DNA from: an uncultured Chthonomonadaceae bacterium
GTDB lineage: Bacteria > Armatimonadota > Chthonomonadetes > Chthonomonadales > Chthonomonadaceae
NCBI GenBank assembly: GCA_963817895.1
Contig: CAWFQB010000001.1
Location: forward strand, 544,001-608,000
DNA: 64,000 nt
Reading direction: 5' to 3'
The notes beneath the pieces were generated by a model. That model made no database searches. It had not been told where the DNA came from and saw only the letters and a list, made by a program, of their open reading frames with translations. Shown piece by piece: positions 3,126 to 59,210 of the stretch (its first letter is position 1; each line of letters opens with the position of its first letter). A program made the position numbers and the translations under genes.

Positions 3126-3436
3126 TGAAAAGGCGCCTTCATGGACGCGCAACGCGGGATGCGATAAGCAGGCGCAAAGCAGGAAGCGGCAAGCGAGTTC
3201 TGAATACAGCAGGGTAACAGAAAAGACTGAAAAGAGAAGCAGGTGACTAGACTTTAACACATCCCGCTAATTTTGCCAACCTATTTCCGAAAGTTTTTTT
3301 GAACCAATTTATCGACATGTTGCGGAAGGGTTCCTCGCTGCTCCACCGACGAAAAACAGCCCCTACGCAATTGTGAAATCACGGAAGGGCTGCCTCTCCC
3401 TGTCAACTATCAGGGTGTACCTTCAACGAAAGGACT

Positions 3437-23632: not shown

Positions 23633-24586
23633 CTATGACGCGAAACGCGCCATCATCTGTTCTACCGAGGCCAGTTCCTGTAGCGAGGAGGCCATGGTGT
23701 CGGTCGCTACCACCACTTCTTCCACATCCGCCAGAATCTGCTCGGGCGAACGGGCGCGGATTTCATCGTTAATCAGCCCGAAGGTATCCTCAACGAGTTG
23801 AAGCTGATGATTGAGATTGACCAGTATTCTGCCGATTTTGCCGACGAACTCATCCCGCCGCTGTAAAATGTCCATGCGCTTTTGCAGAATGGAACGAGTC
23901 GCCTCATCCGTTTCGGCTTCGAGGGATTGGCGCAGTTTTTCGGCTTCCTGACGATAGTGCGCCTGTATTTCTCCCACCACCCGCTGCGTCCACTCGTCCG
24001 GGGACGCGGCGGCGTAGGAGTTGGAAACGGATTTGCGTTTGGCGTTCTGCCCGTCTCGCGCTTCGTCACGGGAATGGGCGCGGGAAGCGTTGCGGTCGCG
24101 CTCAAAGTTCCAATTCGGCTCGTAGGCAGGGACGGCGTTGGCGTGAAGCTCGTTTTGAAGCTGTTCCAGATACGCGCGAAACTGAACTTCCTTACCCGCA
24201 AACAGCAGGAACTTATCCAGCAGGTAATCCAGCTTGCGCAGCACTTCCCGAAACCACGCTTTATCTTCCGCCGATTGCGCGTCAATCTGCGCGCGCGTCG
24301 CTTCCAGATGCGCGAACCGCTCCTGCATATCCGGGCGCAATAGAGTCAGCGTTTGCGCCTTCATCTGCTGCCGCTGCTCCTCGATTTCCGCGTCATAACG
24401 CTGTGACAGCCGCGCCTGATACCACGCGGAATCCGGCACAAACAGCAGATACGCGGCCTCGGCGACAATGGCGGCCAACAGCGGCAGGGGGTTGAGCAGG
24501 GCAGCCGACAACGCCACGGCTCCGGCAAGGCCGACCGCATTGTAGCTCTCCTTCATCGCTTCGACGATACGGTTATGTTTAGGCAT
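23633..24586 (-). CDS. Hypothetical protein with N-terminal TM hairpin and long coiled coil
   Basis: AGAVALSAALLNPLPLLAAIVAEAAYLLFVP followed by heptad-rich helices. Confidence 0.78.
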   Translation of the reverse strand: MPKHNRIVEAMKESYNAVGLAGAVALSAALLNPLPLLAAIVAEAAYLLFVPDSAWYQARLSQRYDAEIEEQRQQMKAQTLTLLRPDMQERFAHLEATRAQIDAQSAEDKAWFREVLRKLDYLLDKFLLFAGKEVQFRAYLEQLQNELHANAVPAYEPNWNFERDRNASRAHSRDEARDGQNAKRKSVSNSYAAASPDEWTQRVVGEIQAHYRQEAEKLRQSLEAETDEATRSILQKRMDILQRRDEFVGKIGRILVNLNHQLQLVEDTFGLINDEIRARSPEQILADVEEVVVATDTMASSLQELASVEQMMARFAS

Positions 24587-24592
24587 GGGAGT

Positions 24593-24683
24593 TGAGATAC
24601 GAGATACGAGATACGAGATACAGGCACAGAGTCAGTTGAACCACTGGCATTTACTCGTATCTCCTATCTTGTATCTCGTATCT
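24593..24683. repeat. Inverted (GAGATAC)n ... (GTATCTC)n arrays between operon genes
   Basis: gagatacgagatacgagatacgagatac and ctcgtatctcctatcttgtatctcgtatct. Confidence 0.88.
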
Positions 24684-25500
24684 ACAAATTGACAAACACC
24701 GTTCGGATTTCGCGCAGCAGTTCTAAGAATTCTGGCGAGTTGGGGCCGTCGTCGCGCCAGGCTACGCCGCGCTCCACGCAGTTGTATACGGCTTGTATAC
24801 GCGCGCCGGGGATGATTTGTCCCTGCGCGTCGCGGTCGCGGCCTAACAGCCACACGGTATCCACGACCGACAGCGCGGCGGCAATATCATGGGTGACGAT
24901 TACAAACGTTTTGAGTTCATCGGTTTGCGCCATATCGCGTATCAGGGCGCAGACGCTCTCCTGCGCCACCAAATCCAGCCCGGAAAACGGCTCGTCCATC
25001 AGCAGCAGATGTTCGCTGCACATAAACTGCTGCGCGATGGCAACGCGCTGCCGCTGCCCGCCCGAAAGCTGAACCGGGTACTTGTTGGCCTGCGCTTCCA
25101 GCCCAAAGCGGGTAAGCAGGGATTGGGCAAGGGCTGTCGCCTGAGCCTGCGGCAGATGCCCCAATTTACCCGCCACGCGCAGGTTCGCCAGTACCGTCCG
25201 ATGTTCAAACAGGGGATAATTTTGCGCGACAACGCCCACCATGCCCCGATGCACCGGCTGGTTTTCGATCACGATAGAGCCGCTGTCCGGCGCTTCCAGC
25301 CCCGCCAGCAGCCGAAACAGGGTTGTTTTGCCCACGCCCGACGGCCCAAGCAGTCCGATGACCTGCCCCTGCGTGTAGCCTTTGCGCAGAATGTCTTTCA
25401 CTTCCAGATCAACATCGCGCAGAATCTGTTCCTGTCCCAGACGTTTGTTGACGCCGGTGACTTTGAGAATTGTTTCTCCATAATCGTATGCTGCGACCAT
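24682..25500 (-). CDS. ABC transporter ATP-binding protein (TauB/SsuB-like)
   Basis: Walker A GPSGVGKTT, signature LSGGQRQR, Walker B LLMDEPFSGLD, VTHD. Confidence 0.95.
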   Translation of the reverse strand: MVAAYDYGETILKVTGVNKRLGQEQILRDVDLEVKDILRKGYTQGQVIGLLGPSGVGKTTLFRLLAGLEAPDSGSIVIENQPVHRGMVGVVAQNYPLFEHRTVLANLRVAGKLGHLPQAQATALAQSLLTRFGLEAQANKYPVQLSGGQRQRVAIAQQFMCSEHLLLMDEPFSGLDLVAQESVCALIRDMAQTDELKTFVIVTHDIAAALSVVDTVWLLGRDRDAQGQIIPGARIQAVYNCVERGVAWRDDGPNSPEFLELLREIRTVFVNL

Positions 25501-25606
25501 ACCTTACCCCAACCCCTCTCCTGACCGCGCTACGCGCTAGGAGAGGGGCTATTTTAGGTTGCCCCTTCCTGCCGTTGTTAATTGCGCCAGAAGTAGAGCT
25601 ATATGT

Positions 25607-26548
25607 TTACTTACGTTCCAGTGTCAGGTCGGCGTAGGGGCAGACGAGTCTTCGCGCCGCGCCGATGGCGTAGTCTTGCAGCAGGCCGACAATCAGAATT
25701 ACGATCTGAATGGCGAACACTTCGGCAAGCAGAAAATGCTTGCTCTGGTTGAGCAGCATGGCTCCGACGCCGCCCTCCGAACGCGAAATGCCCTCCACCA
25801 TCGTCAGCATCATCCAGCCAATCGCCGCGTTCTGGCGCAGCACTTCAAACGCCTTTTCCGCCGTGCCTAAAATCACCACTTCCCAGACCACCTGCCACTC
25901 GCTCATGCGCAGGGTTCGGGCGTAATCGAAATTGCTTTTGGGAATCGCCGCGATGACAGCGGCCATCGAAGTGACATAGAACACGGTTACGGCAAATACG
26001 AGTAGGGACGTTTTCAGCGCGTCGCCGCCGGGAAAGATCAGCATGAACACAAACGTAAACCCGGTCAGGCTCAGAAACCGCCCCTTCGAAACGGCTGCGG
26101 CAAGCGGGCGAAAAACCGGTATCACGGTCAGATACGCCAGTCCGAGCGACAGAACGGAAGACCACGCGAGGGCGCGAACGTTGAGCAGGAAACTTGTCCA
26201 CAGTTCCGGCCCCAATCCCTGCGTAAACCACAGCGAACGCAACGCGGTCAGCACCTCGCCGGGAAGGGGAAGCACCTTGAATGGCGAACGTATCCAGATC
26301 AGGAGCGCAATCGCCGCTTCAACAAGAACAATCAGCCGCATGGTCCCACGCGATACGGCGCGGTTGGGCAGGAAGATATCCATCCATCTGCCCGCAGCGT
26401 GGGGTTTTCGCTCCTGCCCCGGCAGAAGGTCCCCCACTTTCAGCGCGGCGTTTCCATGCGCCCCCGCCACAAGGACGTTACCGGCTGTCGCGTCGGTCGC
26501 CTGTTCCATCGGAGAAATTTCAGGTTCTATCTTGGATGTTTGGTTCAT
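25607..26548 (-). CDS. ABC transporter permease (TauC/SsuC-like)
   Basis: Multiple TM helices; LPLPGEVL; EAA-like region YARTLRMSEWQVVWEVV; GWMMLTMVEG. Confidence 0.88.
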   Translation of the reverse strand: MNQTSKIEPEISPMEQATDATAGNVLVAGAHGNAALKVGDLLPGQERKPHAAGRWMDIFLPNRAVSRGTMRLIVLVEAAIALLIWIRSPFKVLPLPGEVLTALRSLWFTQGLGPELWTSFLLNVRALAWSSVLSLGLAYLTVIPVFRPLAAAVSKGRFLSLTGFTFVFMLIFPGGDALKTSLLVFAVTVFYVTSMAAVIAAIPKSNFDYARTLRMSEWQVVWEVVILGTAEKAFEVLRQNAAIGWMMLTMVEGISRSEGGVGAMLLNQSKHFLLAEVFAIQIVILIVGLLQDYAIGAARRLVCPYADLTLERK

Positions 26549-26581
26549 GGATGGTTGCTGTAAATAGAGACGATATTGGTT

Positions 26582-28384
26582 CTAACTGCCGGCTCCCATA
26601 ATGATTTCCACGCGGCGATTCTGGGCGCGGCCCTGCGGCGTGGCGTTTTCCGATACGGGGTTTTCCGAACCGTGCGCGAAGACCCGAATACGTCCCGACG
26701 GGAAGTTGACCGGGTATTCCTGTTCCAATCGCTTCTTTACGGCAAAAGCGCGGGATTCGGACAGCGCCATGTTCGCCGAAGGCGATCCCTGATTGTCGGT
26801 ATGGCCGTGAATTTCAACCACTGTGCCACTGGCAACCAGCGCATCGCGGCCCAATTGTTCCACCATGCGCTTGGAGTCGGCGGCAAGTGTCGCTTTGCCG
26901 GTATCGAAGTGGATGTTCCAGGCGCGGCGGCTGACCGGAATTTTAACGACACCGGGATTCGGGTATTTCGGTTTTGAGCGGTCAATTGTCGCCATTGTTG
27001 GCGCGGCCTTTTTCACAATATCCTGAAGGTAGGACGTATCCAGAACCTGATTGATGGGCTGATAACTGGGCAATAACTGCGGGTACTGCGCGACGACTAT
27101 ATCGCCGAACACGCGGTAAGTGGCCTCGTACAGGTTTGCCGAACCGCTGACCATTCCGAAGGTGAGCAGCATTTCGGCCAGGTTGCTCGCGCTCGACCCG
27201 CCGAGATCAACCTGCTGCCCGGTTTTATCCGGCTCGGTCACGCCCCGGTAGTAACGCGCCCAGTACGGCGCGTCCGATTCGTGGTAGACAACCGCGCTGA
27301 CGGCTGCGGCTTTTTGCAGGGCGTCGGGATTGGCGCGTACCGCGTCGCCGCCCTCGGCAATCGCCTGTAGCATCCCCTCTACCGTGCCGCGATTCGCCTT
27401 CATCCACTTGTCAATGCCGATGATGATGCACGGCATCTGCGAACTATATTCTTTCGTAGACACGATGGAAACCAGACCGCCCTTTTTTTCGGCCACGTTC
27501 ACGTCGCCCGGTGTCCACGTTACAACTCCATTTACGACGACGTGTTTGGTTTCTCCCGTTCGCTTGCCGTTGTGTACGACCGGGCGATCTTCAGCGTAGC
27601 CCGCAATGTATTTCTGCGCGGCGTCCAGATAGTCTGAAGCGTTCACCCAGTTCATTGCGTCGGGATCATAGGTTTTCTCGTCGGGATTGGTGCGCAGGCC
27701 GTTGTCGCCAAGCCACTTTTGCGCGATGTTCCAGTCGCCGTCGCGCAGGACGCCCGCCACAAACCCGCCCCGGCTGGAGGGGGGATTGGCTTTCCAGACC
27801 GCCGGCCCCATGAACTTGTCTTCGCCATGCGAATAACCGCACGAACCGACCACTTTGGCCTGATAATCCGGCCCGATACGGCGCAGGGTATCATTGAGCG
27901 GCTTCAAAAACGCCGCGCTGCCATCGCCCATGATGGTGACGAAGTGCGCGCCCGTTTGCGGGTTAGCGTTGCCCCGACTCAACTCGGTGGCAAACGCCGT
28001 CAGCGCTTCCTGCAATTTGCCGTTGTCGTCCTGTCGGCTGAATTTGAGGTTGACGCCGTGTTTCGCCATCAGGCTGCCCTGTGTCGCCTGCGGCCCGCCA
28101 TTCGCGAAAAGCAGACCCATCTGCGCGTTCCAGGCATAGCCCTGAAAGCGCACTTCGGGCTTGTCGGGAACACCGGGCGCATCGCCGGGAATCGCCACAG
28201 CGCCGCCCCCGCCGCTATTCGTCGGCTTGGTCGGGTCTATTGGCGGCAGGGGCGCTGGAATTGGTACAACAGGAATTTGTGGTGCCGCGGGTGGGGCAAG
28301 CTTGTTCCAGAACCGCCACAATCCAAACGCCAAACCGACAGCCAGTATCAAAACAACAATTTTTCCGGTCGGCTTCAGCTTCAT
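26582..28384 (-). CDS. Membrane-anchored substrate-binding protein fused to a C-terminal OmpA peptidoglycan-binding domain
   Basis: N-terminal TM; SBP-like core (GYSHGEDKFMG, GDWNI); IHFDTGKA...IHGHTDNQG...LSESRA...NRRVEI. Confidence 0.88.
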   Translation of the reverse strand: MKLKPTGKIVVLILAVGLAFGLWRFWNKLAPPAAPQIPVVPIPAPLPPIDPTKPTNSGGGGAVAIPGDAPGVPDKPEVRFQGYAWNAQMGLLFANGGPQATQGSLMAKHGVNLKFSRQDDNGKLQEALTAFATELSRGNANPQTGAHFVTIMGDGSAAFLKPLNDTLRRIGPDYQAKVVGSCGYSHGEDKFMGPAVWKANPPSSRGGFVAGVLRDGDWNIAQKWLGDNGLRTNPDEKTYDPDAMNWVNASDYLDAAQKYIAGYAEDRPVVHNGKRTGETKHVVVNGVVTWTPGDVNVAEKKGGLVSIVSTKEYSSQMPCIIIGIDKWMKANRGTVEGMLQAIAEGGDAVRANPDALQKAAAVSAVVYHESDAPYWARYYRGVTEPDKTGQQVDLGGSSASNLAEMLLTFGMVSGSANLYEATYRVFGDIVVAQYPQLLPSYQPINQVLDTSYLQDIVKKAAPTMATIDRSKPKYPNPGVVKIPVSRRAWNIHFDTGKATLAADSKRMVEQLGRDALVASGTVVEIHGHTDNQGSPSANMALSESRAFAVKKRLEQEYPVNFPSGRIRVFAHGSENPVSENATPQGRAQNRRVEIIMGAGS

Positions 28385-28848: not shown

Positions 28849-29271
28849 ATGAGACGATTCCAGACGATTCTCGCGCTGTCCGTACTGATGGCGTCCCTTC
28901 CCATGTTCGGGAGCGCGCAAAAGGGGTATCGGCCCTTCAACGGACACAAAGACAAGGCGTATCTATCCAGCTACAACCGGGCCAAAGCCAGCGTACATAA
29001 GCGGTTTACAGCGGAACAGCGAACGCGCATTGCCGGGGAACTGACAAAGTCCGAGAGCCGCGCCGCAGACGCCGCGAAACATCAGGTTCCGGTGACGTCG
29101 AAGATAGGCACGGCAGCCGCCAACAAACAGCAGGATCGGCAGAGCCACCTGAGCATGCGCCTGAGCCGACAATATCAGGCTCAGGTACGCGCCCGCTACC
29201 ACCTGACCCCCGATGAAGCGGTCGTCATCAATCGCGAGGCCATAGATAAAGGCGTCAGGACAGGCCAGTAG
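28849..29271 (+). CDS. Secreted hypothetical protein
   Basis: RBS AAGGAG; signal peptide MRRFQTILALSVLMASLPMFGSA. Confidence 0.65.
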   Translation: MRRFQTILALSVLMASLPMFGSAQKGYRPFNGHKDKAYLSSYNRAKASVHKRFTAEQRTRIAGELTKSESRAADAAKHQVPVTSKIGTAAANKQQDRQSHLSMRLSRQYQAQVRARYHLTPDEAVVINREAIDKGVRTGQ

Positions 29272-30178
29272 ACGCCGGCAGCGCGTTGTCATTCGCTGCT
29301 TCCATGCTGACGCTGCGCGCCGGCTGTTCGGTTTCGAGATTGGGATGAGAACTTCCGGCAGGTCGCAATAGAGTTCGCGCAGGGGCCGCATCCGGCATGG
29401 TTGCCCGCAGAGAGGTTCGGGCGGTTACGGCCTGTTTCGTGCGGGCCTCTATTGCCAGCAGGCAGGCGTTGGCGGCGTGTTCAATGCGCGGCGCATCGGC
29501 CATCCAGACGGGACACGATAGCAGGCGGCGGACGACCCGACGGGAACGGGGAACGCCGACCTGCTCAAACGCGGCTAAAATCGCCAGTATCAGGTTTGCG
29601 TTCGTGCCGCGCAAAACTCGACATAACGCCCTGTGCTGCGCCCGCGAAAGCAAATTTTTGTCCCTCAAATGCGGCAGTGTTTCCACAAGAATCACCTGCG
29701 CGAGACAGGAGGCATCGCGGTCCCCGTAGCGCATGACATCCACGAAAACGTTTACGCGCTCCACAGGCGGAGCCTCCTGCAATAAAAACAGCAGGTTCCG
29801 TATCCGCCGTTGCTTTACGCTGTGCGCCAGACAGTGGCGCGTTAATAGCCGCGTCATCAGCAGGAACAGCGCAAAGAACAGCAGACCAATCCCATTCTGA
29901 ACAGGCCAGCCGAGGAGTAAACGGCCATGCGCGAGTATCAACAACGCGAGGGTCGTTATCAACAGCCATGCCCGCCGCCTGTGGCTTTCCCGAAAGCCCT
30001 GAATGTCGAGTACCAGCAACCCCGTCAGGAATTCGGCGGCAGGCAACCCTTTCGTATCCAGAATTGCCAGCGCGCGCCACAATCTGCGCCGGCTGTCGCT
30101 TTCCAGACAGGCATAAAGTTCATAAGCCGTTTGTCGCGTGAAGCGAGACTCCGGTTCCTCCCTCGTCGCAGGTATCAT
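29255..30178 (-). CDS. Membrane protein with HEAT-like helical C-terminal domain and LLRP tail
   Basis: Two TM helices; LVETLPHL...LAILAAFEQVG...; tail TSLRAT...TLLRPA; paralogous in architecture to 62260-63606. Confidence 0.65.
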   Translation of the reverse strand: MIPATREEPESRFTRQTAYELYACLESDSRRRLWRALAILDTKGLPAAEFLTGLLVLDIQGFRESHRRRAWLLITTLALLILAHGRLLLGWPVQNGIGLLFFALFLLMTRLLTRHCLAHSVKQRRIRNLLFLLQEAPPVERVNVFVDVMRYGDRDASCLAQVILVETLPHLRDKNLLSRAQHRALCRVLRGTNANLILAILAAFEQVGVPRSRRVVRRLLSCPVWMADAPRIEHAANACLLAIEARTKQAVTARTSLRATMPDAAPARTLLRPAGSSHPNLETEQPARSVSMEAANDNALPASTGLS

Positions 30179-30233
30179 TTGTTTGCCTTTTGTTTGAATA
30201 CCCGCCCCGACTGCTGAAGCAAAACCGCGCCCC

Positions 30234-30376
30234 AAAGCAAAAGGAGGCCGGAAGCGGCGCGTTCCACCGGCACATTCTGTGCGCGGCGTCTGCAATCCAC
30301 TTCCGGCCTCCCCTGCGACAAACCGCGAGTTTGTGTCTCGCGTCCTTCACATCAGCAGCCGAAATCGTTGTATTCC
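30234..30376 (-). ncRNA. Candidate structured leader RNA/attenuator, copy A, ending in an intrinsic terminator
   Basis: Aligns with 31032-31180; GGAGGCCGGAAG...CTTCCGGCCTCC followed by TTTTGCTTT; TATAAT at 30399-30394. Confidence 0.6.
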
Positions 30377-30404
30377 ATTCTTGTGATAGGGATATTATAC
30401 CCTA

Positions 30405-30989
30405 TCAGGATTCACAAACCGAAGCCGCTTCCAGACTGGTTTCCAGAGCCGCAAGCACCTCGCCGGCATTGATGGTTTCGGAGAGCGCGTCCGCTTCAGG
30501 ATCGGGACGGTTTTGCACGGTCGGCATATCGCGGCGCAGTTCTTCCAGCAGCGCGATAATTTTCGCGGTGCGCTGGTCGTTGAGCATGTTGATTTGCAAA
30601 TCCAGTTGCTGCCGTCGTTCGGCAAGCTTGCCCTGACGGTTCTGCGTAATCAAGACAACCGTTGCCATCAGCAGCGCGCCCACGTTGACGATGCTGATCA
30701 GCAGGTTGAACGGCGCGGGGTCGAAAGTGGGCGCGTGGAAACGCGGCGCGAAAACATTGACCAGCACCCACGCGATCATCAAAAACATCAGCAGGTACAG
30801 GAAGCGGGGTCGGCCCAGCCATGCGGTTATTTTTTCCGCCACGCGCTGATGGCGGTCCACGTCATGCTCGGCCCGCGCCCGCAGTTCCGCGACGGTCGCG
30901 ATATTCTGGCTGATGGGGTCAAGCGGCGCGGGCGGCGAGATTTCTTCAACACTGTTTAACGCCTGTTGCGATGTTTGTGTAGTCTGCAT
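30405..30989 (-). CDS. DUF1003 family membrane protein
   Basis: AEKITAWLGRPRF...WVLVN...FDPAPFNLL...VVLITQNRQ...LDLQINML. Confidence 0.88.
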   Translation of the reverse strand: MQTTQTSQQALNSVEEISPPAPLDPISQNIATVAELRARAEHDVDRHQRVAEKITAWLGRPRFLYLLMFLMIAWVLVNVFAPRFHAPTFDPAPFNLLISIVNVGALLMATVVLITQNRQGKLAERRQQLDLQINMLNDQRTAKIIALLEELRRDMPTVQNRPDPEADALSETINAGEVLAALETSLEAASVCES

Positions 30990-31031
30990 GGACAATGTTC
31001 TGCTCTTCCCGTATCTTCCCGAATTTTGCTC

Positions 31032-31180
31032 AAAACAAAGGAGGCCGGAAGCGGCGCGCGTTCAACCGGCGCGTTTCGCGCGCGGTATCCGCGTTTTGCT
31101 TCCGGCCTCCCTGACGACCAACAGCAAGCCTGCACCCCGCTGTTCTTCGTCCCGGCAACCGAAATTGTTATGGTGTTCCC
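31032..31180 (-). ncRNA. Candidate structured leader RNA/attenuator, copy B, ending in an intrinsic terminator
   Basis: Extended -10 TGCTACAAT at 31194-31186; same stems as copy A with compensatory changes; terminator followed by TTTGTTTT. Confidence 0.6.
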
Positions 31181-31515
31181 ACGCTATTGTAGCATGTTTG
31201 CTTTCCGGGCGCAGGCCATCTTTTGAAAAATACGCGCCCTCTCCGACGCTTCGCAACCTGATGCTTCGCAGAATGTCCGCGTCTGTTGTGGCGACGCGCC
31301 CTTGCTTTGCCGCGAAATACCTGTTTTGCTGAATTGCCGGTAAAAATATTCGCGTGTCGGCAGGAGTTTGCCCGCAAAACGCGAATCTAAATCCTGTTGC
31401 CTGACCGTTTGTTGTGTTTTCGCTTTTTAACGCGAAGAGTATTGCCCTCCCACGCTATGTATCTCAACCATCTATCCTGTTTCTGATTTAACTGTTTCCA
31501 AGGAGAAGAACACCT

Positions 31516-32491
31516 ATGAAGCCCATACGCCTCCGCCCTGTCGCCCTGTCCGGTTTGTCCCTGTTTTCCATTCTCATTGCCGCGCCCTATGTTTGCGCGC
31601 AAGCGCCTCGCCGCTTCTGTTCCCGCCGGACTGAAAAAGACCGCCAAATCCGCGCCCAAATCGCCTAATGTGAAATCCGGCGAGATCGTGGCCCTGAGCG
31701 CGGACGAGGGAACCATACAGATCAAAGACAAACTGGGCAAGACCGCCGAGTACGCGCTGACGGAAAAGACGCGGTTCCTGAAAGGCAAGCAGGAGGCCGA
31801 AGTCAGCGCGTTCAAGCCGGGGGAGGCGGTTGTCGTGCATATCCGCAAGGCGCGGGACGGGGGCGATGCGCAGGCGACGGAAGTGGCGGATAAAGCGTCG
31901 TGGGCATGGCTGGAAGATGTCAAGCGCAACATGGCGGAGGGCGTGATTACCTCGCTGGAAGATGAAGAATTGGTTGTTACGATTGGCGCGGAAAAGATTC
32001 CGGTTGCGTATAGAGTGAGTGACAAGACGACGTGGAGCCGGAGCGGCAAGCCCGCCTCCGCCGCAGACTTCAAAGTAGGGGATAAAGTCGTCATTGTGCC
32101 GCGTTCGCTTCCGAGCGGCGCGATTATGGCGCGGGCAGTGAGCGATACGCCCCAGGCGGCGATGCAGCTCAAAGAGCGGCAGGCGACCTCGGTGCATGGA
32201 GTCGTGAAAACGGTAGACGCGGCGGCTTACAAGCTGACGGTGGAAACCCCGACAAGCGATATGCGGCTGATACAGGGCAATGCGGAAACGGAAGTGGTTT
32301 CAAAAAGCAAGGCACTGCCCTGGACGGCCCTGAAACCCGGCCAACATGTCGGCGCGCGGCTGCGCCACGATTACGCGGGTGACGCGGTTTGCTGGCGCAT
32401 CACCATCGAAACGGGCAAAAGCGCCACGACAATCAAATTTAAAAAGCCGCCGACAGCCAAAACCGGCGTCAAAGAAACGGTAAAGCATTAA
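31516..32491 (+). CDS. Secreted protein with three OB-fold-like (DUF5666-like) repeats (frameshift near 31607)
   Basis: RBS AGGAG; signal peptide MKPIRLRPVALSGLSLFSILIAAPYVCAQ in a different frame from the body; repeats ending FKPGEAV, FKVGDKV and LKPGQHV. Confidence 0.7.
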
Positions 32492-59041: not shown

Positions 59042-59114
59042 GGAATGATAGCTCAATCAGAAGAGCGCGTTGACGACATCAACGATGTTACGGGTGCAAT
59101 TCCCGTTCATTCCA
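59042..59114 (+). tRNA. Atypical tRNA-Val(GAC)-like RNA
   Basis: GGAATGA/TCATTCC acceptor; GCTC/GAGC D-stem; CGTTG/CAACG anticodon stem with loop ACGACAT (C33 instead of U33); ACGGG-TGCAATT-CCCGT T-arm; A73; no encoded CCA. Confidence 0.7.
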
Positions 59115-59138: not shown

Positions 59139-59210
59139 GGGGATCGTAGCTTAAACGGAAGAGCGCGGCAAACAGTTCCGAGGCTGAAGGTTCGATCCCT
59201 TCCGGTCCCC
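59139..59210 (+). ncRNA. tRNA-like RNA with canonical acceptor, D and T arms but a collapsed anticodon arm
   Basis: (G)GGGATCG/CGGTCCC(C) acceptor; TA; GCTT-AAACGGAA-GAGC; only CGG/CCG around CAAACAGTT; GAAGG-TTCGATC-CCTTC. Confidence 0.72.

Follow-up and report, generated by a model that had tools for sequence, protein, structure and literature searches.

The window analysed here, a 64,000-nt stretch of one contig of an uncultured Chthonomonadaceae bacterium, carries two related leader elements on its minus strand, designated copies A and B. Copy B lies behind a putative promoter with the -10 hexamer TACAAT (31191-31186) and a TG-n ahead of it. Its predicted antiterminator rod (31098..31166) scores 67.5 bits with R2, a covariance model of 36 sequences. 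The basal helix P1 of the rod pairs 31160-31154 with 31110-31104 and contains U.G, U.G and G.A, and beyond P1 the rod comprises a 3x3 loop, helix P2, an A.G site and a variable helix P3. The rod overlaps a predicted intrinsic terminator (31032..31111), which uses the 3' strand of P1 as its 5' arm and has its 3' arm at 31051-31040, ahead of a U-run. Downstream of it is a gene (30405..30995, minus strand, ATG at 30989) encoding a DUF1003 membrane protein (Pfam E 8e-25); the genome has five matches to DUF1003, this one included. Immediately 3' of the stop codon of this gene is the putative -10 hexamer of copy A, TATAAT (30399-30394), followed on the same strand by a rod (30299..30366; R2 59.3 bits) with P1 formed by 30360-30354 and 30311-30305, and by a terminator (30234..30312) with its 3' arm at 30254-30243 and U-run at 30242-30234. 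The gene downstream of copy A (29255..30178, minus strand) encodes a 307-aa protein that contains hydrophobic stretches and matches no Pfam family. Judged from this layout, the DUF1003 gene would be controlled by copy B and the gene for the 307-aa protein by copy A.

An earlier note, made from the letters of the window, had described two elements at these positions, each following a -10 box and preceding a membrane-protein gene. Both elements and both genes are in place; as for the promoters, the two hexamers are present, but neither was called by a promoter scan, which also demands a -35 match. A leader peptide was considered and rejected, as N-x-F-G-C is encodable in both copies, but by eye a start codon is in frame only in copy A. 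Elsewhere the window contains adjacent tRNA-like genes on the plus strand (59042-59114 and 59140-59210; 52.4 and 44.1 bits) with odd anticodon arms, and a minus-strand operon (23633-28384) with genes for an OmpA-domain binding protein, a permease and an ABC ATPase; a gene similar to one of this operon occurs near leader copies in genome G002.

Copies A and B are 72% identical across 133 nt (blastn against the genome, E 3e-12). They fold more stably than shuffled sequences (z = -4.57 and -4.34; equally stable shuffles 0/200), and their 5' parts do so when folded alone (z -4.25). In the short RNA the central strand GGAGGCCGGAAG is paired to the 5' strand, and in the full RNA its partner is instead the 3' arm CTTCCGGCCTCC ahead of the U-run, so the proposal that it has two alternative partners is borne out. 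Folding energies predict a preference for the terminator state by 11.8 kcal/mol in copy A and 14.2 kcal/mol in copy B. The compensatory changes quoted earlier for the variable stems were all found. Of the sequence that had been listed as shared by the two copies, the 5' rod corresponds to the conserved unit of the family; the inner part of the terminator, CCGCGC...GCCGGT.GAACGCG, is not kept across it.

A search of the window against Rfam 15 at the gathering threshold returned two tRNAs only and no family match to the element. At E<=10, positions 29900-31700 and 20 homologous loci gave only chance matches far below threshold, and 16 further loci gave a single tRNA. Relatives were found by several other routes. 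A DNA search of 61 genomes yielded full-length matches in two sister genomes, in which the copies precede differing genes, and a pattern scan identified the element immediately 5' of kdpF and kdpA in a named Chthonomonadales record. The first covariance model, R1, built from 5 sequences, had matches in 29 of 68 genomes of the order; R2 had matches in 32 of the 68, and in 18 of 151 genomes of the phylum. The genomes of the order contain one to four model matches each, upstream and in sense orientation wherever a gene was identified. In total 39 genomes of the order are RNA-positive, seven of them solely through targeted inspection of kdp leaders. A pattern scan of metagenomes gave 17 loci, of which ten have a terminator and seven were rejected as coding matches, and viral contigs contained neither a pattern match nor a relative of MpsC, the protein introduced below. 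Several further candidates were discarded: L064 and L070 are false model matches, the Gemmatimonadetes pattern match L031 sits in a coding repeat, and two weak model matches among 101 Gemmatimonadetes genomes lack terminators.

The genome under study has two more copies outside the window. The third, found by R2, which was built before this site was known, lies about 480 nt ahead of kdpA, and the fourth, a variant, precedes the mpsC gene neighbouring kdp, so that the two enclose mpsC upstream of the kdp operon. The window copies are thus unlinked members of the same regulon, with mpsC and kdp on another contig. These numbers bear on the idea that the element is a free-standing small RNA, or else a miniature mobile repeat, equipped with a promoter and terminator of its own. 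The -10 box and terminator of each window copy and the differing downstream genes in the sister genomes would suit such a unit, but just four copies are known in 7.5 Mb (an anchored genome scan with strict cut-offs missed copy B), their position and orientation ahead of a coherent gene set are fixed, the start codon at locus L002 follows the terminator by only about 20 nt, and the arms of P1 and the terminator co-vary. The mobile repeat that the earlier note had named as a refuting outcome does not describe this pattern, and we consider either form of this explanation very improbable.

The conserved unit of the family is about 65 nt long and consists of P1 (GGUUGCC with GGAGGCC, containing two U.G pairs plus one G.A), the 3x3 loop, a four-pair P2, the A.G site and the variable P3. 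In an alignment of 36 sequences, which was fitted to the covariance model, 87.4% of the cells pair, with two-sided changes in 18 of 23 pairs; none of 500 shuffles reached this pairing, and slid controls gave 30-48%. A larger set was derived from 80 rows, of which seven were dropped (five false, one duplicate, one uncertain third copy at L105) and one identical core was merged, leaving 72 distinct ungapped cores. Among 630 column pairs of these cores, the top five by mutual information are all in the register of the duplex. Folding gave P1 for 69 of the 72 cores as short RNAs, and the full RNAs formed the terminator in 71 of 72 cases, with a median difference of 10.1 kcal/mol; the cores had been preselected for pairing and a terminator, which inflates these counts and affects the mutual-information ranking less. 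Where P1 changes, the terminator arm changes with it, as at L040 and L053.

Three positions (G15, G94 and A104) are invariant in all 36 sequences and A25 is conserved in 35. Both strands carry a G, then nine bases, then A-G-G (G after A25 in 57/72 and 61/72). This arrangement suggests two G.A sites nine pairs, or about one helical turn, apart and related by pseudo-two-fold symmetry, and a symmetric duplex site of this kind would fit a protein dimer. The conserved structure is mutually exclusive with an intrinsic terminator and lies upstream of genes on the same strand, as is characteristic of attenuators. The earlier note had left the choice between a new riboswitch, a protein-responsive attenuator and an sRNA family. 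Neither an Rfam match nor many randomly oriented copies lacking covariation, the outcomes it gave as refuting, were found, and of its three options the evidence favours the attenuator.

Tabulation of the genes downstream of the element revealed a potassium regulon. Main-type sites in whole genomes number 64, and the first downstream gene that could be identified is kdpA in 48 cases, a HAMP-PAS histidine kinase in three, an APC transporter in two, a DUF1003 gene in two, a four-helix-bundle membrane protein in two, a Na+/H+ exchanger in one and the 307-aa protein of the window in one, with five sites left without an assigned gene. At one of these five (L160 7898-16131, G002:C60) the leader stands at the start of an operon that contains a gene for a PknG-like kinase (Pfam) and presumably also PP2C-, vWA-, FHA- and GlnX-like genes. 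The earlier note was blind to the kdp regulon and to MpsC because both lie outside the window. The element represents a real attenuator family, so far uncatalogued, that controls a potassium-uptake regulon.

KdpA is encoded in 40 of the 68 genomes of the order. Four genomes have kdpA but neither the RNA nor MpsC; two of these loci are cut at contig ends, and the others are G018, where a KdpD-type kinase occurs together with a Trans_reg_C regulator, and G043, with a 934-aa KdpD frame. G018, the only genome shown to have a KdpE-type regulator, is one without the RNA and MpsC. The KdpD frames of the RNA-bearing cassettes are about 380-480 aa long and kinase-less. In the one such genome that was checked, G005, KdpD is reduced to KdpD and Usp domains, and the response regulator has only a receiver domain followed by about 130 residues without a Pfam family. 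Two genomes that are 100% complete, G044 and G051, contain mpsC and the RNA with no match to KdpA or KdpD.

Some features of individual kdp loci can be added. At most of them (as at L122, ~3250-3430) the leader and kdpA are separated by two short genes for KdpF-like membrane peptides (~27-33 aa and 28 aa), sometimes joined by a third, variable one. In L122 (G000:C5:564000-580000) the kdpA, kdpB, porin-like, Na+/H+ exchanger and kinase genes are each split into several frames, which may be due to assembly errors rather than decay. The two kdp operons that lack the leader, at L108 and L116, contain short direct repeats in the promoter region 5' of kdpF, which are candidate regulator boxes.

The kimA gene has been linked to c-di-AMP regulons. 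The set of kdp and APC/KimA-like genes found here resembles such regulons (PMC6488665), and the genome encodes a diadenylate cyclase domain. RF00379 was not found in any of five genomes searched, by a search whose controls were positive in 2 of 14 cases. A c-di-AMP OFF switch of a new class, akin to the Bacillus kdp leader, would account for these observations. We nevertheless give it very little credence, since the conserved part of the element is the antiterminator, the stabilisation of which would turn expression on, opposite to the effect of c-di-AMP on kdp, and the element has no similarity to RF00379.

The distribution of the RNA coincides with that of MpsC/DUF2294 (PF10057), a protein encoded by a single-copy gene in 35 of the 68 genomes of the order. 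The RNA is present in every one of the 35, as established for 28 by the R2 search and for seven by targeted inspection of kdp leaders; the latter seven score 13.9-39.4 bits and have a terminator in each case. Four genomes are RNA-positive without MpsC; three of them are 64-86% complete and one has its match at a contig edge. In the sample of the phylum, all 18 RNA-positive genomes have MpsC. The gene mpsC is located at most 700 nt upstream at 44 of the 64 leader sites and, by inspection by eye, itself follows a variant copy of the leader in 29 of 35 genomes; P1 of this variant contains a compensatory A-U pair. By the same inspection, the other mpsC genes comprise four without a leader copy (G011, G042, G048 and G049), one with a diverged and one with a truncated copy. 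Upstream of position 1501 in L135 (G031), the usual variant before mpsC is replaced by a structured leader that is longer and diverged and has a terminator. A factor encoded beside the leader and sharing its range of genomes is what is expected of a protein-dependent antiterminator, with the qualification that these genomes are kin, and that mpsC, the RNA and kdp move as one cassette; the counts therefore do not amount to independent tests.

If mpsC were merely a target, the rod could be an ON riboswitch for a monovalent cation or a related signal (Na+, or Na+ against K+). Its targets are cation transporters, tandem leader copies occur at L058/L091 and L105, and the nearly invariant U.G/U.G/G.A core would suit an ion pocket. 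The overlap with the terminator follows the same logic as in the Na+-I and Na+-II riboswitches described in PMC9337991 and PMC9646797, and GGAGGCC, the 3' strand of P1, is similar to its counterpart in the Na+-II construct of the PMC9646797 supplement. Were this explanation true, the element would be a new ion-sensing riboswitch class linked to potassium homeostasis; the literature search found no paper on a K+ riboswitch. We regard it as unlikely, although it is the most serious of the alternatives: the second hairpin with the conserved Li+/Na+ loop is absent, there is no Rfam match to those families, mpsC still adjoins in G042, G048 and G049, where its own leader copy is missing, and the two-fold symmetry of the duplex would suit a protein dimer.

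MpsC has 123 residues; invariant Arg, Gln and Gly lie in helices and loops of its predicted model, which has a pLDDT of 95.4. A sequence comparison of MpsC with the PDB found nothing significant, a Foldseek search with the model gave no match at E<=0.001, and an Atlas search returned MpsC clusters only. The best Z of the model in VIA was 6.9 (rmsd 3.5, 86 aligned); RbfA reached Z 5.5 (rmsd 3.8, 88 aligned), a value shared with proteins that are not RNA binders. Prediction of a homodimer gave 0.55 against 0.00 for the best control, with runs agreeing in 100% of contacts and pLDDT of at least 91; 20 of 30 solved pairs attained this mark, as did 1 of 23 single chains. The prediction supports the formation of a dimer by MpsC and provides no support for RNA binding itself. 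In the model the interface would run sheet to sheet, leaving the conserved helices exposed. A search for longer forms of MpsC found two proteins, one apparently a gene-calling merge. According to PMC6689103, deletion of mpsC in S. aureus caused no growth phenotype.

Another factor of the cassette could bind the rod, with MpsC as a partner or bystander; the candidates are the receiver protein with its unassigned C-terminal half and the kinase-less KdpD. The roughly 130 unassigned residues of the G005 regulator and the cut-down KdpD of the same genome are in line with this, and a database protein, P0123 (341 aa), joins a partial MpsC to a KdpD domain, although this is a single record and may be an artefact. 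We find such a role improbable, as G044 and G051 keep the RNA and MpsC in the absence of any KdpA or KdpD match.

A second clade of MpsC occurs in the phylum and is mostly missed by R2. The two clades are separated by the motifs FQREQQGRGP and FEKEYMGRGP. With a looser pattern, a related rod and terminator were found at most 420 nt after mpsC at 5 of 23 second-clade loci, against 0 of 460 shuffles, and the loci with a related leader include the Bacillota record L185. The other 18 of the 23 loci have no strict match within 420 nt downstream, and three of these show a similar element by eye. Second-clade leaders precede genes other than kdp, which we take to be a PEP carboxykinase-like gene and a transporter. 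A related core ahead of unrelated metabolic genes speaks against a cation riboswitch, and a related leader before non-kdp genes likewise against another factor of the kdp cassette. Main-clade MpsC differs from the second clade in its association with a potassium regulon, in the leader before mpsC itself and in the unlinked copies elsewhere in the genome. In L181 (~2000-2244) three second-clade leaders are arranged in tandem 3' of mpsC.

Taken together, the switches are probably flipped by MpsC/DUF2294, a small protein that has received little study, rather than by a small molecule, and we favour, with moderate confidence, MpsC-dependent antitermination in place of KdpE. According to this model, the leader would stop transcription by default. 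The rod would fold first, and about 57 nt later the 3' arm of the terminator would displace the basal P1, ending transcription. A dimer of MpsC may bind the rod at the two symmetric G.A sites and keep P1 closed, which would allow read-through. MpsC would be supplied by its one gene per genome, located mostly just 5' of the kdp leader, and the MpsC-RNA pair would substitute for the DNA-binding KdpE. Judging by gene context, the targets opened would be kdpFABC, the APC-type (KimA-like) transporter, the Na+/H+ exchanger, the sensor kinase, mpsC and scattered genes including the two genes of the window, and the trigger would be scarce potassium or low turgor. The signal might reach MpsC via the co-encoded kinase-less KdpD, the HAMP-PAS kinase and the receiver protein, or, just as speculatively, via a ligand bound by MpsC.

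A broader reading is proposed more tentatively. MpsC/DUF2294 proteins may be widespread, hitherto unrecognised dimeric RNA antiterminators, the clades of which respond to different signals. Within the phylum, MpsC with its RNA would be the output of potassium sensing that replaces KdpE, and maybe itself a sensor of the ion or of turgor, in a potassium regulon controlled at the RNA level and independent of c-di-AMP. MpsC-dependent antitermination, if true, would provide a function for PF10057, a widespread family found also in Staphylococcus and Bacillus, and would join KdpDE and the c-di-AMP riboswitch as a third mode of control of the high-affinity potassium pump.

In the literature searched, neither this RNA nor MpsC as an RNA binder was found described, although the supplementary motif tables of large RNA-discovery papers may list the RNA. 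The matching main-text passages of PMC11109978 and PMC8632094 mention neither kdp nor DUF1003. The class of mechanism is already known; no publication was found on the RNA, the proposed role of the protein or the potassium wiring.

The same general arrangement can be recognised in several known systems. Protein-dependent antitermination is exemplified by BglG/LicT with RAT hairpins, HutP and ANTAR proteins. As in these systems, the hairpin overlaps the 5' arm of the terminator, transcription would stop by default, read-through would follow the binding of an oligomeric protein, and the gene for the factor lies beside its target and is often autoregulated. Unlike them, the element is a rod whose two G.A sites are separated by nine pairs and which matches no Rfam family, and the candidate protein belongs to PF10057, with no sequence relative in the PDB and no clear fold match.

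With the Na+-I (DUF1646), Li+-I (nhaA-I) and Na+-II RNAs of PMC9337991 and PMC9646797, the element shares the small size of a leader before cation-transport genes and the non-canonical pairs at the base of P1. Na+-I and Na+-II are ON switches acting through terminators, according to these papers. These RNAs have two hairpins and a conserved P2 loop, whereas the element is a single rod with a variable apex; the comparison with the Na+/Li+ constructs was made by eye from the PMC9646797 supplement. The Li+ gene table of PMC9646797 includes neither kdp nor DUF1003.

The nearest functional parallels concern kdp itself. In Bacillus thuringiensis a c-di-AMP riboswitch (ydaO, RF00379) controls kdpFABC, the ligand promoting termination (PMC6488665). 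The element resembles that riboswitch in RNA-level control of termination in bacteria without KdpDE control and differs from it in having no sequence or structure match and in that its conserved fold is the antiterminator. With KdpD/KdpE control, as outlined in PMC6488665, it has in common the target kdpFABC and a cassette that retains the KdpD sensor domain; unlike there, KdpD is kinase-less, the G005 regulator is without Trans_reg_C, and the output is apparently exerted on termination of transcription, not on its initiation.
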